DNA of 18,833 nucleotides. Source: a virus. The DNA lies in the UHGV virus genome UHGV-0152950. One strand, given 5' to 3'. Shown here piece by piece: positions 5,541-18,225 of the stretch. The notes beneath the pieces were generated by a model. That model made no database searches and had not been told where the DNA came from. It worked only from the letters and a program-made list of their open reading frames with translations. The translations under genes and the position numbers were made by a program. Every line of letters begins with the position of its first letter. Within the stretch, counting starts at the first letter, position 1.

Positions 5541-6482
5541 TTAACTAACAATCCAGTCCATAGCAATAACATCCTCTGGAGCTAAATCAATAGCATGGAT
5601 TTTCCCGTCACGGATGGTGCGCCAGTGCTTTCGTGATCCACCTTCGGGCCACACCCATATACCTTCAGGCCAGGAAGAACGACGACACACTGTTGCGTAT
5701 CCAGTCCTGAGCTTCTCTCTGACGGTATGTAGTGACAGATTATCCTTTGGGCTTTCAGGCACAGGATGGTGGATTGCCTGAAACATCCCCATCTTTGGAT
5801 GATACCAGCGTTTATTGCGTGGTTCTGCCTCCGACATCACCTGCTTAAAGGCTTTCCGGAAGGGGGCCAGGGCCACAATGGAGCGTCGCGCAAGCAAACC
5901 ATCTGGAGTTAAAAACTCATGCGTATCGGTGGGAATCCGGAAAGCGTTAACCAGGTTGCGACATTTGGCTTCAGTCAGGCCACATTTCGCCGCCAGCTGG
6001 CGGTAGCCAATGTAGCCTTCCGGAATATTGCCTTTCTTTATTTGCTCGAGTGTTTCAGCGACCATCGATACTTGTGCTGATACCTCGGCTACCTGGGCAT
6101 TTACGGCGTTGATCCGGCGTTCATGCTCAAGATGCATTTGCGCCATTTCAGCCAGAATTTCGGCTTTTGATTTTAACTGTACCCGGGCATTCTCCAGTTC
6201 GCGCCAGCGGTCCACCAGCCGGGCGGTGAATTCCGGAGAGAGCTGCGCGACGACAATGATGCTGTCTCGTTTTCCTTGTTCGCCTTCAAAGATGTAAGCC
6301 TTGGAAAATCGACGAGGGCCAACTGATTGTTTATTTTCAATTTCCACAGATTGTGGAAATTGGATCACACTCTTTTTAGCCAGTGTTTCGATAGTTCTCT
6401 TCACACTATCTGGGCGACTTCCTACCAGTTCCGCGATCTCAATACTGGTCATTGTCGCTTTTTGAGAGATGGACAGATTCAT
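5541..6482 (-). CDS. ant: Phage antirepressor, Rha/Ant family
   Basis: 313 aa. N-terminal MTSIEIAELVGSRPDSVKRTIETLAKK resembles the Rha regulatory-protein domain. Its ATG overlaps the stop of the upstream Icd-like gene (ATGA), as in the P1 immI icd-ant arrangement. Confidence 0.75.
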   Translation of the reverse strand: MNLSISQKATMTSIEIAELVGSRPDSVKRTIETLAKKSVIQFPQSVEIENKQSVGPRRFSKAYIFEGEQGKRDSIIVVAQLSPEFTARLVDRWRELENARVQLKSKAEILAEMAQMHLEHERRINAVNAQVAEVSAQVSMVAETLEQIKKGNIPEGYIGYRQLAAKCGLTEAKCRNLVNAFRIPTDTHEFLTPDGLLARRSIVALAPFRKAFKQVMSEAEPRNKRWYHPKMGMFQAIHHPVPESPKDNLSLHTVREKLRTGYATVCRRSSWPEGIWVWPEGGSRKHWRTIRDGKIHAIDLAPEDVIAMDWIVS

Positions 6483-6697
6483 CAGTGCACCTCCACGCAG
6501 TTCATCGGCAGATTCCAGTAATTGAGGATCTCCATCGCATCAAGAGTGAAGCGAGCAGCAAAAATGCAGGGTTCTTCGGGAAGGTATGAGCGCGCTTCTG
6601 CTTCGGTTGCAGCCATGACGCAGATATACAGGTGTTTTTGGCAGGAATAGAAACGCCAGATAAATTCAGAATGAGTTGGGGTAGGGGTAGTAGCCAT
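6482..6697 (-). CDS. icd: Icd-like protein (host cell division inhibitor family)
   Basis: 71-aa ORF MATTPTPTHSEFIWRFYSCQKHLYICVMAATEAEARSYLPEEPCIFAARF... resembles the Icd-like family from memory. Perfect SD AAGGAGG upstream; translationally coupled to ant. Confidence 0.6.
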   Translation of the reverse strand: MATTPTPTHSEFIWRFYSCQKHLYICVMAATEAEARSYLPEEPCIFAARFTLDAMEILNYWNLPMNCVEVH

Positions 6698-6754
6698 AAT
6701 GGCAGCCTCCTTTTGCTAATTTAAGGAGCTACCGCGTGAGGTTCCAATCTCAAT

Positions 6755-6835
6755 GGCGGTAGCACTGACTGGGTTGGAACTACCGGCGCAAAAGGGAACC
6801 GGCCTGCCTTTCGGCAGCCCAGCCAGCACTACCAT
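6755..6835 (-). ncRNA. Candidate C4-like antisense RNA (boundaries uncertain)
   Basis: Minus-strand hairpins GGCUGCC-GAAA-GGCAGGCC and GGUAG-(loop UUCCAACCCAGUCAGUG)-CUACC. The loop GUUCCAA is complementary to UUGGAAC upstream (about 6930) and just before the icd SD (about 6745). The RNA could instead be the 6883-6960 hairpin plus terminator. Confidence 0.3.
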
Positions 6836-6882
6836 TGATCTCTGAGCTAAACGCTACGTATGGCTGTGCGATGGCATGACAC

Positions 6883-6904
6883 AAAAAAAGACGCTTTCGG
6901 CGTC
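6883..6904 (-). terminator. Rho-independent terminator (minus strand)
   Basis: Hairpin gacgc tttcg gcgtc (6890-6904) followed on minus by a U7 run (plus A7 at 6883-6889). Confidence 0.5.
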
Positions 6905-7009
6905 TGTGTCGCCTTTTGCATTATCCGGGGTTCCAATCCCGGCACCCGTTTTTCTAAGGTGCCGTAGAAATATACCCCACGATAATGCCAGGGCGCAACA
7001 GTCAGTATT

Positions 7010-7177
7010 TTATGCTTTGGCGGATTTCTTCCGGGCTTGCTTGCAGGCGTAGGCCATTGCTTTAGCTTTCACTTCATCCAGCTTCCCGGTGATCACTTCT
7101 TTTCCGAGAGTGACAAACCAGTCATAGCAACCGCCAGTGATGTTCTGGATTTGAAAGTTGAGGTAGCGAACGGTCAT
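7010..7177 (-). CDS. Putative small protein (55 aa) with basic C-terminus
   Basis: Not in the ORF track. Hand translation MTVRYLNFQIQNITGGCYDWFVTLGKEVITGKLDEVKAKAMAYACKQARKKSAKA, with a G-rich SD-like sequence upstream. The overlapping plus ORF 7037-7255 lacks signals. Confidence 0.35.
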   Translation of the reverse strand: MTVRYLNFQIQNITGGCYDWFVTLGKEVITGKLDEVKAKAMAYACKQARKKSAKA

Positions 7178-7508
7178 TTTGACACCCCCAGCGCGAGTAA
7201 AGAATGCAGATTATCGCGTGAGTGGCGGACAACGAGTGATGGGAAAAGACAGTAGCTGTTCATAGTGTAGTGACTCCTTGCTTTCGGAGCCGCCATCGAC
7301 TGTTCCACGGTCTGGTGGCGGCGCAATAAAGGCTGGAACACCGTGAGTCAACGGGGGCTTTTCAGCCACCTATATTGCACCGCCATTGGTATGGCGGCGG
7401 CAATCATACGAAAAACTAAATAGTTTGTCTCAAAAAGTTGACCGGTGTGCCAATGGGTAGTGAATGTACATCGGAGCATTTTTCAATTCAACTTAAAATG
7501 TTAGAAAA

Positions 7509-14283: not shown

Positions 14284-14493
14284 ATGGCTATTGCCGCAAG
14301 TTACACCATGCATCTCTATTGTGACTGCCGCCAGTGTACGGAAGGTGTATATCCAGTGCCAGACTTCGGTGAATATATCGGTACGTCATGGGCTGGCTGT
14401 GCAAAAGAGGCACGTAAGGATGGCTGGCGAATAAGCAAAGACAAAACACGTGCTTTTGCGCCCGGGCATAAAGTTTTGAGGATTAACAAATGA
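14284..14493 (+). CDS. Small Cys-rich protein (69 aa)
   Basis: Consensus SD AAGGAG 6 nt before ATG 14284. The track start 14212 overlaps the upstream gene and lacks an SD. CDC..C motif. Confidence 0.55.
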   Translation: MAIAASYTMHLYCDCRQCTEGVYPVPDFGEYIGTSWAGCAKEARKDGWRISKDKTRAFAPGHKVLRINK

Positions 14494-17973: not shown

Positions 17974-18225
17974 ATGAGCGACTGGAATATTGCAGCTAAA
18001 AGTCAGGAAGAACGGGATAAGGTTAACGTTGATCTGGCTGCCAGCGGTGTGGCGTACAAAGAGCGATTGAACATACCTGTCATAGCTGAACAGGTAGCCC
18101 GCGAGCAACCAGAGAATCTGCGCGCCTATTTCATGGAACGGCTACGGCACTACCGGCAGTTAAGCCTCCAGTTGCCAAAAGGGAGCGATCCGGTGTATCA
18201 GAACGAGGATGCACCAAAAAAATAA
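17974..18225 (+). CDS. Hypothetical protein (83 aa)
   Basis: ATG 3 nt after the upstream stop; weak SD. Confidence 0.6.

Follow-up and report, generated by a model that had tools for sequence, protein, structure and literature searches.

The window analysed here is an 18,833-nt stretch of viral DNA (UHGV-0152950), in which the minus strand from 6998 to 5541 very likely represents an operon for secondary immunity of the P1 immI type, carried by a D6-like phage-plasmid of E. coli. In DNA comparisons the window shares 94.6% identity with D6 across this locus and 99.9% with E. coli plasmids of roughly 92 kb, and matches are found in 328 E. coli records. On the minus strand the elements follow in the order promoter-like site, IsrK-type leader (with a1, b1 and a terminator), C4, a2, b2, icd and ant, as specified below:

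6998-6969, minus strand: promoter-like site (-35 TTGCGC at 6998-6993, 18-nt spacer, -10 TATATT at 6974-6969)
6962-6883, minus strand: IsrK-type leader RNA, counterpart of the P1 a1/b1 leader, with an Rfam isrK match
6936-6930, minus strand: a1, UUGGAAC, in the loop of leader hairpin 2; complement of C4 a'
6919-6912, minus strand: b1, GCAAAAGG, complement of the C4 b' loop
6905-6883, minus strand: intrinsic terminator AGACGC-CGAAA-GCGUCU followed by seven U (stem-loop 6905-6889), also returned by the terminator scan
6839-6752, minus strand: C4 antisense RNA, Rfam C4 (RF01695)
6835-6716, minus strand: 39-aa ORF over C4, RefSeq 'ash family protein'
6795-6788, minus strand: b', CCUUUUGC, in the C4 hairpin-2 loop; partner of b1 and b2
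6780-6774, minus strand: a', GUUCCAA, in the single-stranded C4 junction; partner of a1 and a2
6747-6741, minus strand: a2, UUGGAAC, directly 3' of C4, within a small hairpin loop
6716-6706, minus strand: b2, GCAAAAGG (6716-6709), with the Shine-Dalgarno AAGGAGG (6712-6706); the icd AUG is at 6697
6697-6482, minus strand: icd-like gene, 71 aa, with P1 Icd homology and NCBIfam and PHROG matches
6482-5541, minus strand: antirepressor-type gene, 313 aa, with a Rha/Roi-like N-terminus
5531-5515, minus strand: GC-rich hairpin CCCCGG-CGACG-CCGGGG with a weak U-run, directly 3' of the ant stop, read from the sequence

RNA family matches, fold, complementarities, co-variation, Icd homology and gene overlap can all be seen directly for this operon. 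A preliminary description had proposed a P1 immI-like module with the order C4, icd and ant, and both the RNAs and the gene layout, compared with the P1 annotation, bear this out. The upstream edge that it placed at 6960 needs a slight extension, as the transcript start most likely lies at about 6962 and the promoter-like hexamers reach to 6998. We take 6998-6969 as the putative operon promoter, with transcription predicted to start around G6962. The -35 sequence TTGCGCC and its distance to the RNA 5' end are preserved in divergent leaders (for instance L037 and L040); a consensus promoter scan did not return the 6998-6969 site. At the other end, the hairpin at 5531-5515 probably marks the end of the operon. 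The P1-type C1 operator ATTGCTCTAATAAATTT has no match anywhere in the window at up to three mismatches. A sub-threshold RybB match on the plus strand (6326-6401, E = 0.053) falls inside ant and was put down to chance.

Two RNA families are found above their gathering scores, adjacent to each other and on the same strand. The leader (6962-6884) matches isrK (RF01394) with 62.5 bits over model positions 1-77, against a gathering score of 50. It consists of hairpin 1 (6962-6942), hairpin 2 (6941-6926, with a1 in its loop), a single-stranded b1 and the terminator, and thus shows the three hairpins, the last one an intrinsic terminator, by which the isrK family is recognised. The terminator hairpin announced earlier for 6883-6904 is indeed present, as a stem-loop at 6905-6889 followed by seven U down to 6883, and it coincides with the 3' hairpin of the Rfam match. 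Other types, as well as P1, preserve the hairpin and U-run with stems that differ in sequence. The c4-a1b1 model (RF03163) gives only 22.4 bits for the leader (6975-6922), below its gathering score of 46.7; the homologous P1/P7 stretch scores 51-55 bits with c4-a1b1 and 35-44 bits with isrK. The leader does the job of c4-a1b1, in that it bears a1 and b1, but its sequence type is isrK. RNAalifold on 21 leaders recovered just the three isrK hairpins with little covariation, a poor yield that is due to the poor alignment around the U-run.

The second RNA, at 6839-6752, matches the Rfam C4 model over its full length (model positions 1-87) with 76.7 bits (E = 8.9e-14; gathering score 45). Based on alignment to the annotated 77-nt C4 of P1, the mature form is predicted to comprise 79 nt (6833-6755); the 5' context AU|GG and the 3' sequence ...ACCGCCA align with the annotated P1 ends. 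Its minimum free energy (MFE) fold reaches -46.6 kcal/mol (z = -5.27) and has the C4 architecture, with a long closing stem around two hairpins and a single-stranded 3' junction, as RF01695 requires. This fold exposes b' in a loop and leaves a' unpaired. Among nine C4 sequences, compensatory changes occur at 16 of the 23 consensus pairs. When the whole leader is folded, the MFE structure pairs a1 and b1 in cis with a' and b'.

The complementarities around C4 involve two short motifs. Between them, b' and a' are complementary to two downstream sites, one of which lies on the ribosome-binding site, the arrangement by which RF01695 is characterised, and b2 overlaps the icd Shine-Dalgarno in the same layout as the annotated b2 site of P1. 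The direct repeat reported in the preliminary description is exact: the 10-mer GGTTCCAATC occurs on the plus strand at 6740-6749 and 6929-6938 and nowhere else in the window, and the UUGGAAC of a2 and a1 forms the core of these two copies. Exact copies are expected 0.04 times, and two were reached in one of 200 shuffles (61 of 200 if one mismatch is allowed). For the inverted copy, which had been assigned to a stem-loop at 6758-6784, a complement does exist, though it is limited to the 7-nt core GUUCCAA (6780-6774); it has no hairpin of its own and sits in the single-stranded C4 junction, the assigned range being this core together with the 3' strand of the closing stem. The b motif, with GCAAAAGG present twice and CCUUUUGC in the C4 loop, had gone unmentioned, and it is this pair that covers the icd Shine-Dalgarno. 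Likewise, the upstream copy of the repeat was found to lie within an IsrK-type RNA, where only a terminator inside the leader had been described.

The gene called icd-like beforehand proves to be a true Icd homologue: its product shares 62.7% identity (tblastn, residues 8-66) with Icd of P1 and matches NCBIfam NF033153 (phage_ICD_like) with 49.5 bits at a cut-off of 25, as well as phrog_1426 at 1.2e-40. An Icd-like label is already present in the D6 and RefSeq annotation. For the downstream gene, the earlier assignment as antirepressor is retained in one respect and lost in another. The 313-aa protein matches phrog_63 ('anti-repressor Ant') at 3.4e-60 and is 85% identical to the 'putative anti-repressor' of D6, but it is not an orthologue of P1 Ant1/2. 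Its Pfam Phage_pRha match (26.2 bits) stays below the cut-off of 29.9, so an antirepressor function is suggested by the PHROG name and the context. No similarity to P1 Ant1 is detectable by BLASTP (E = 0.32), nor is there real homology to the protein encoded after the isrK-C4 tandem of Stx2 phage F039 (E = 0.019), which argues that the RNA cassette has been joined to different cargo genes. RefSeq labels this intact gene a pseudogene. The two genes do not overlap by ATGA as first proposed: the junction reads UGAUG, with the icd stop at 6484-6482 and the ant AUG at 6482-6480, an overlap of 1 nt. A paralogous module on the same plasmid type shows the same 1-nt stop/start overlap with its own icd.

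The motifs were compared over 26 b'/a' specificity types from IMG/VR viral contigs, and D6, P1, P7 and others were compared as well. Conservation of the motifs is not all that homologous leaders of many specificity types show: the C4 loops and both of their targets change together. Site a1 co-varies with a' in all 26 types and a2 does so in 25. For b1, a cognate complement of 7 nt or longer exists in 20 types out of the 26, compared with 13 of 644 non-cognate pairings; for b2, the figures are 22 of 26 and 15 of 644. Taken over all sites, an exact complement of this length is present in 20-26 of 26 cognate cases and in 2-13% of the non-cognate ones.

Closely related leaders give the same picture. 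The leader of the window and that of D6 are 98% identical and differ at about 11 positions, six of which arise from one two-base swap repeated in concert at each of a1, a' and a2: the a allele is UUGGAAC in the window and UUGAGAC in D6, at all three sites. Among D6-type leaders the a and the b motif each occur as two alleles; all four combinations are represented, and the three sites always match. One natural leader (L038) forms an exception, its a1 being mismatched to its own a' and a2, which means that a1 matching is not absolutely required. A crude duplex-energy matrix of C4 loops against target leaders does not separate all cognate from non-cognate pairs cleanly; the D6 C4, for instance, ties on the window target owing to an AUUGAG repeat. 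Our conclusions on specificity therefore rest on the exact-complement tables and not on this matrix. Overall, there is strong in-silico support that the upstream sites a1 and b1 are functional partners of C4 alongside the downstream targets.

Together these features suggest the following course of events. Transcription of the minus strand would start at about 6962, and many transcripts would end at the terminator (6905-6883), yielding a small IsrK-like RNA, about 79 nt long, on which a1 and b1 are exposed. Transcripts that read through would contain the C4 precursor, which, judging from P1 homology, would be cut by RNase P at U6834/G6833 and trimmed from the 3' side to about 6755. Mature C4 would then base-pair with the same mRNA species, b' (hairpin-2 loop) with b2 and a' (junction) with a2. 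Because b2 covers the icd Shine-Dalgarno, this pairing would mask it and leave icd, a cell-division inhibitor gene, untranslated; and because the ant start overlaps the icd stop (UGAUG), ant would need icd translation and would be silenced too. With ant silent, the lytic repressor would stay active and the prophage quiet. Sites a1 and b1 can pair with the same C4 loops: in cis while they are part of the precursor, and probably also in trans when they sit on the terminated small RNA. They would thereby act as a decoy tuning the level of free C4. The a and b sequences would set the specificity, a phage being repressed only if its motifs match (heteroimmunity, compare P1/P7). We infer C4 processing, translational repression, icd-ant coupling, the decoy role and the antirepressor activity of the 313-aa protein from P1 and Gifsy-1.

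A P4-like control deserves to be weighed, although we regard it as rather unlikely. Here C4 would act on nascent a1/b1 to set termination at 6905-6883, and pairing at a2/b2 would be secondary. Indeed, a1 and b1 are located immediately 5' of the intrinsic terminator, and they co-vary with C4 as tightly as a2 and b2 do, which indicates that pairing there is under selection. On the other hand, b2 is positioned on the icd Shine-Dalgarno in every type examined, as in P1, and the terminator scan found no terminator-like site after a2/b2. A helix across the terminator, in which GACAC (6910-6906) pairs with GUGUC (6882-6878), would suit such control; 29 of 34 flank combinations have it, and it is kept weakly across types. 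A candidate antiterminator hairpin next to b1 (GGCG 6914-6911 with CGCC 6902-6899), seen in the MFE structure, might have competed with the terminator and made termination depend on C4 binding, but its pairing is not conserved across types and it was dropped. Hershko-Shalev et al. (PMC4825925) call IsrK a structural homologue of P4 SeqA and bring up the possibility that the downstream processed RNA modulates termination at the IsrK terminator. When the Gifsy-1 downstream RNA was co-expressed, however, it did not act the way a termination factor would (PMC4825925). Control of termination and a block of translation are not mutually exclusive.

It is improbable that the C4 stretch is instead, or in addition, a translated leader ORF (6835-6716, compare orf45 of Gifsy-1) whose translation opens the ribosome site of icd and couples downstream expression to it. 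RefSeq annotates this 39-aa ORF. Its AUG lies 138 nt from that of icd and shares its frame, and in 20 of the 33 specificity types the frame continues uninterrupted into the gene downstream; in the window it is closed by a UAA at 6718-6716. For Gifsy-1, PMC4825925 describes a tagged orf45 and a role of its start codon in the translation of anrP, but the amino acids of orf45 are reportedly variable and its nucleotides conserved (PMC12197685). The C4 model, for its part, scores far above threshold here with abundant compensatory pairs, the peptide has no NCBIfam family match, and the predicted RNase P site splits the ORF AUG (6835-6833). A stop codon ends the frame within the hypervariable b' loop in about 7 of the 33 types, including P1, close to the 18% expected for four random codons, so that this loop has no sign of coding selection. 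Most likely, the 'ash family protein' ORF is not a gene. That the repeats are functionless remnants of a duplication, in an operon controlled at the promoter alone, is hardly credible: a 10-mer present twice could arise by duplication and 61 of 200 shuffles reach two matches once a mismatch is allowed, but exact copies are far rarer by chance, the three sites per motif change jointly in dozens of lineages, a two-base swap is found at three sites between leaders that are otherwise 98% identical, and one crossover cannot yield a matched set because the sites are interleaved (a1, b1, b', a', a2, b2).

Further upstream, a tandem C4-like module is located, with an operator-like motif, a promoter-like site, a C4-like RNA and two small ORFs:

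7508-7010, minus strand: upstream tandem C4-like module
7508-7494, minus strand: operator-like motif TTTTCTAACATTTTA, about 500 nt further upstream of the operon promoter
7491-7463, minus strand: promoter-like site (-35 at 7491-7486, -10 at 7468-7463)
7390-7311, minus strand: C4-like RNA, sub-threshold Rfam C4
7307-7301 and 7276-7271, minus strand: putative targets a2 (UGGAACA) and b2 (GAGUCA, on a Shine-Dalgarno)
7263-7174 and 7177-7010, minus strand: two overlapping ORFs of 29 aa and 55 aa

The C4-like RNA scores 39.5 bits with the Rfam C4 model, below the gathering score of 45, and folds into the same architecture as C4 (z = -4.46). The module is conserved in 28 D6-like loci, with a few compensatory changes in its stems, and TTTTCTAACATTTTA is enriched on a sister plasmid (10 copies against 2.3 expected). 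No earlier report of the module was found in the D6 record, RefSeq or PMC6799933, the D6 genome paper being outside this scope.

We tentatively raise the possibility that D6-like phage-plasmids use a combinatorial, RNA-only lock-and-key code, with up to three orthogonal C4-type locks per genome and, in each lock, the IsrK-type leader as a key acting in trans. If this were true, the window would carry two locks in tandem, the upstream one guarding two tiny ORFs, and the terminated IsrK-type RNA would open the operon as an anti-antisense decoy, by titrating C4. Three interleaved sites changing in concert would create new specificities, which would account for the dozens of alleles as well as the free assortment of a and b among near-identical leaders.

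Returning to the immI-type operon itself, the copy found here is ordinary but intact, and the kind of system is already known from P1/P7, from IsrK of Gifsy-1 and from D6-like plasmids. It is an antisense switch of the textbook type that adds little in terms of principle, and its practical value concerns annotation: the two RNAs are unmarked both in the D6 GenBank record and in the RefSeq plasmids, and RefSeq overlays C4 with an 'ash family protein' and gives the antirepressor gene as a pseudogene. Beyond that, the locus offers a natural experiment in which three interleaved short sites change in concert within leaders that are otherwise 98% identical. In the P1 annotation a1 and b1 are 'putative' target sites only, and the co-variation links the P1 literature to that on Gifsy-1 IsrK. 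Clinical E. coli and Salmonella commonly harbour D6-like phage-plasmids, which can bring resistance genes with them; with their immunity alleles known, it would be easier to predict which of them can coexist in one cell or induce each other.

One of the closest known systems is the immI operon of P1/P7, reportedly described by Citron and Schuster in 1990 with the order c4, icd and ant1/2. In P1, translational repression via b2 on the icd Shine-Dalgarno has been demonstrated. The mechanism of P1 immI, with C4 antisense RNA, icd and ant, is described in PMC8198154. Both systems share the order a1, b1, C4 (b' loop, a' junction), a2, b2 on the icd Shine-Dalgarno, icd and an overlapping ant; their C4 RNAs belong to the same Rfam family, their Icd proteins are 62.7% identical, and in both the specificity comes from short motifs that differ between relatives. 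Differences are seen in the antirepressor, which is of the Rha/Roi type here, dissimilar to Ant1/2 and without evidence for two in-frame products, and in the gene overlap (AUGA, 4 nt, in P1 against UGAUG, 1 nt, here). Moreover, the C1 operator was not found in the window, the leader fits isrK (62.5 bits) and not c4-a1b1 (22.4 bits), and the motifs are UUGGAAC and GCAAAAGG here but UUGACAG and GUUAGUG in P1.

The RNA part of the operon has its counterpart in Gifsy-1 (isrK - STnc1160/orf45 - anrP), where a processed C4/CI-like RNA and an antirepressor-type gene with coupled translation likewise come after a terminated IsrK-type leader, and where the leader is complementary to the downstream RNA. 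From experiments in Salmonella only, IsrK is known to bind Hfq and to switch on, in trans, the translation of the antirepressor gene that follows; a processed CI/C4-like RNA, STnc1160, lies downstream of IsrK (PMC4825925). An annotated tandem of 'isrK' and 'C4 antisense RNA' is also present in Stx2 phage F039, and DNA matches to the isrK and C4 tandem are found in 139 phage records. Gifsy-1 and the Stx phages lack icd, whereas a true icd stands between RNA and antirepressor here, and the protein under control is a different one (E = 0.019 in the comparison with that of F039). The published model for Gifsy-1 treats the C4-like stretch as a translated ORF remodelled by IsrK; here we read it as a P1-type antisense RNA.

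Among the D6-like elements, D6 itself (MF356679) has icd and a 'putative anti-repressor' annotated, with a different a allele (UUGAGAC against UUGGAAC in the window), and neither its record nor RefSeq annotates the two RNAs. For the D6-like plasmid pYU39_89, PMC6799933 reports c4 and icd together with an antirepressor and, in addition, another c4/icd region, which is found on the sister plasmid as well. The immunity system of P4 (CI RNA; seqA, seqB/CI and seqC), with which we compare by description only, similarly depends on a small RNA that is processed from a leader and pairs both upstream and downstream of itself. P4 uses premature termination of transcription and has no icd/ant cargo, whereas the downstream site in the present operon lies on a ribosome-binding site.

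On the minus strand of the window two Rfam families adjoin, and both exceed their gathering scores: isrK (6962-6884) with 62.5 bits against 50, and C4 antisense RNA (6839-6752) with 76.7 bits against 45. Aligned with the 77-nt RNA that is annotated in P1, the mature C4 is predicted to span 6833-6755 (-); it folds into a long closing stem that encloses two hairpins (-46.6 kcal/mol, z = -5.27), and nine C4 sequences show compensatory changes at 16 of the 23 consensus pairs. Two sets of short motifs, a and b, run through the region:

6936-6930 (-): a1, UUGGAAC, loop of leader hairpin 2
6919-6912 (-): b1, GCAAAAGG, leader
6905-6889 (-): terminator stem-loop, followed by U7, between b1 and C4
6795-6788 (-): b', CCUUUUGC, loop of C4 hairpin 2
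6780-6774 (-): a', GUUCCAA, unpaired C4 junction
6747-6741 (-): a2, UUGGAAC, 3' of C4
6716-6709 (-): b2, GCAAAAGG, overlapping the Shine-Dalgarno sequence AAGGAGG (AUG at 6697)

The preliminary description had proposed a P1 immI-like module here, and its observation and interpretation were correct with minor corrections only. The two exact copies of the 10-mer GGTTCCAATC that it listed (6740-6749 and 6929-6938) occur nowhere else in the window (0.04 expected; two copies reached in 1/200 shuffles), and the terminator hairpin that it placed inside the leader is real. The complementary copy exists as well, though as a 7-nt core only (GUUCCAA, at a'), and the second set, made up of both GCAAAAGG sites and CCUUUUGC, had been overlooked.

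Judged by its sequence, the 71-aa ORF downstream (6482-6697, -) is an Icd homologue (62.7% identity to P1 Icd; 49.5 bits with NCBIfam phage_ICD_like, cut-off 25). The 313-aa ORF that follows (5541-6482, -) belongs to PHROG 63, 'anti-repressor Ant' (3.4e-60), and has a Rha/Roi-like N-terminus. Both genes overlap as had been described, but by 1 nt (UGAUG) and not through AUGA as in P1. RefSeq labels the antirepressor gene (12674-13384 in L085, a stretch of the sister plasmid NZ_CP116996.1) a pseudogene ('missing C-terminus'); despite this label the 313-aa ORF is intact, and along its entire length it has 85% identity to D6. Its tail, residues 255-312, matches a PHROG of its own (phrog_7385) and is missing from a 235-aa paralogue; the 313-aa protein thus resembles a fusion in which a further C-terminal domain has been added.

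The window leader scores 22.4 bits with c4-a1b1 (Rfam) and far higher with isrK, whereas the equivalent stretch in P1 and P7 shows the reverse (51-55 bits with c4-a1b1, 35-44 bits with isrK), which indicates a single element that comes in two sequence types, IsrK and the a1/b1 leader. In Gifsy-1, IsrK acts in trans to activate translation of the downstream antirepressor, and a processed RNA downstream of it has complementarity to it (PMC4825925). Since the terminated leader matches IsrK, and a1/b1 pair with a'/b' in the whole-leader MFE, the leader would act as a decoy for C4. We further infer C4 processing, translational repression and icd/ant coupling in the window by homology with P1, whose mechanism (summarized in PMC8198154) is the basis of our reading: C4 would be cut out of a read-through transcript and pair with a2 and b2, blocking translation of icd and, via the stop/start overlap, of ant too.

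Just 5' of the leader terminator, GACAC (6906-6910, -) can pair with GUGUC (6878-6882, -) just 3' of the U-run; given the latter position, this helix would form in read-through transcripts only. When flanks of other leaders are combined, 29 of 34 combinations have a terminator-bridging helix of 5 bp or more, and some of the changes in it are compensatory; non-cognate flanks pair too in 48% of cases, so that its support is weak.

The leaders of the window and phage D6 are 98% identical, and 6 of the ~11 differences belong to a single concerted exchange of two bases at each of a1, a' and a2 (UUGGAAC/GUUCCAA in the window, UUGAGAC/GUCUCAA in D6). In a set of 80 IMG/VR loci that have Icd relatives, leaders of the D6 type carry two alleles of a and two of b; each of the four possible combinations occurs, with all three sites matched every time; the same three-site matching is obeyed by P1, P7 and the leaders L010, L033 and L037 (the last through G-U pairs). 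A further search, for which a conserved 14-mer of the leader served as query, yielded 80 distinct real leaders, which fall into 26 b'/a' types.

Pairing of C4 motifs with leader and target sites in the 26 types (counted where the exact complement spans 7 nt or more)
b' with b1: cognate 20/26, non-cognate 13/644
b' with b2: cognate 22/26, non-cognate 15/644
a' with a1: cognate 26/26, non-cognate 54/446
a' with a2: cognate 25/26, non-cognate 57/446

The preliminary description had named motif copies that are not conserved in homologous leaders as an outcome that would refute it; in these leaders the a and b sites change in concert with C4 across types. As the a and b sites, six in total, are interleaved (a1, b1, b', a', a2, b2), a matched set is unattainable by a single crossover, and the simplest reading is that upstream as well as downstream sites are under selection for pairing.

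One leader upstream of icd, L038 (IMGVR_UViG_2778261639_000014), has a D6-type a1 (UUGAGAC) that does not match its own, window-type a' and a2; its promoter region, upstream, is P1-like. It is a natural recombinant, from which it follows that a mismatched a1 can persist. The a2 region of the window (6741-6753, -) holds a short tandem repeat (AUUGAG-AUUGGA, against AUUGAG-AUUGAG in D6), so that a D6-type C4 (GUCUCAA) could still pair beside the window-type a2; such pairing may make the two alleles less sharply heteroimmune.

It might be argued that the system works by P4-like termination, which may coexist with translational repression; however, whatever the type, b2 lies on the ribosome site, and a2/b2 are not followed by a terminator. 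The C4 stretch has also been read as a 39-aa ORF (6716-6835, -; 'ash family protein' in RefSeq) paralleling orf45 of Gifsy-1, and its frame, from the C4 5' AUG in phase with icd 138 nt apart, runs on without a stop into the next gene in 20 of 33 leader types, but it is closed by UAA in the window, lacks a family match and has stops inside the hypervariable loop at about chance frequency.

Besides the C4 antisense RNA, a second, tandem C4-type module is seen just upstream (7010-7508, -):

7508-7494 (-): motif TTTTCTAACATTTTA, abutting the -35 of the module's promoter-like site
7453-7444 (-): imperfect a1-like site
7432-7426 (-): imperfect b1-like site
7426-7411 (-): AU-rich hairpin
7390-7311 (-): C4-like RNA, 39.5 bits with the C4 model (below gathering score), folding in C4 architecture (z = -4.46)
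7307-7301 (-): a2, UGGAACA, pairing with the junction UGUUCCA
7276-7271 (-): b2, GAGUCA, on the Shine-Dalgarno sequence of the 29-aa ORF, pairing with the loop UGACUC
7263-7174 (-): 29-aa ORF, AUGA overlap with the next
7177-7010 (-): 55-aa ORF, phrog_7786, function unknown

This module is kept in 28 D6-like loci, with a few compensatory stem changes and invariant motifs, and the D6 and RefSeq annotations mark no feature of it. Its a' has GUUCCA in common with the main C4, so cross-talk with window-type a sites could occur. On the sister plasmid, TTTTCTAACATTTTA has 10 copies in the first half (2.3 expected at up to 3 mismatches; count reached by 0/100 shuffles), among them 14396-14410, 18183-18197, 36381-36395 and 37788-37802 in L085, and is absent from the second half; it may be a D6-type C1 operator, the counterpart of P1's. 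The P1 C1 operator itself has no match within the window at up to 3 mismatches.

Outside the window, at 1975-3160 of L086 (another stretch of NZ_CP116996.1; 47.9-49.2 kb), there is a third immI-like module, whose sequence is of the P1/P7 type. It scores 52 bits with c4-a1b1 and 72 bits with C4, and its 235-aa Ant paralogue (66% identity) overlaps the module's own Icd-like gene (45% identity) by 1 nt; its motifs differ (UUAGCAG / ACGAAUG). A second region of this kind was already noted in PMC6799933.

The source of the window is a D6-like Escherichia coli phage-plasmid: around the locus, 1.8 kb are 99.9% identical to ~92-kb plasmids such as NZ_CP116996.1, and 94.6% to phage D6 (MF356679). In P1-like phage-plasmids (L034-L036, phages RCS47 and JL22) a leader and C4 that are 93-97% identical to those of the window are joined to a P1-like Icd (~67% identical), so the RNA cassette moves between P1-like and D6-like lineages.

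The immI-type system itself has already been described for P1/P7, Gifsy-1 and D6-like plasmids. The layout of elements is identical to that of P1, whose record is annotated in the order a1, b1, c4, a2, b2 (on the ribosome site), icd and ant1/2, and whose sequence places b' in a hairpin loop and a' in the junction. Unlike that of P1, the antirepressor of the window has no detected homology to Ant1 (E = 0.32). Stx phages and phiP27 carry isrK and C4 in tandem without icd (so annotated in LC710660), and the cargo protein of Stx2 phage F039 is unrelated to the window Ant except for a short N-terminal stretch. Overall, the cargo gene differs from system to system.
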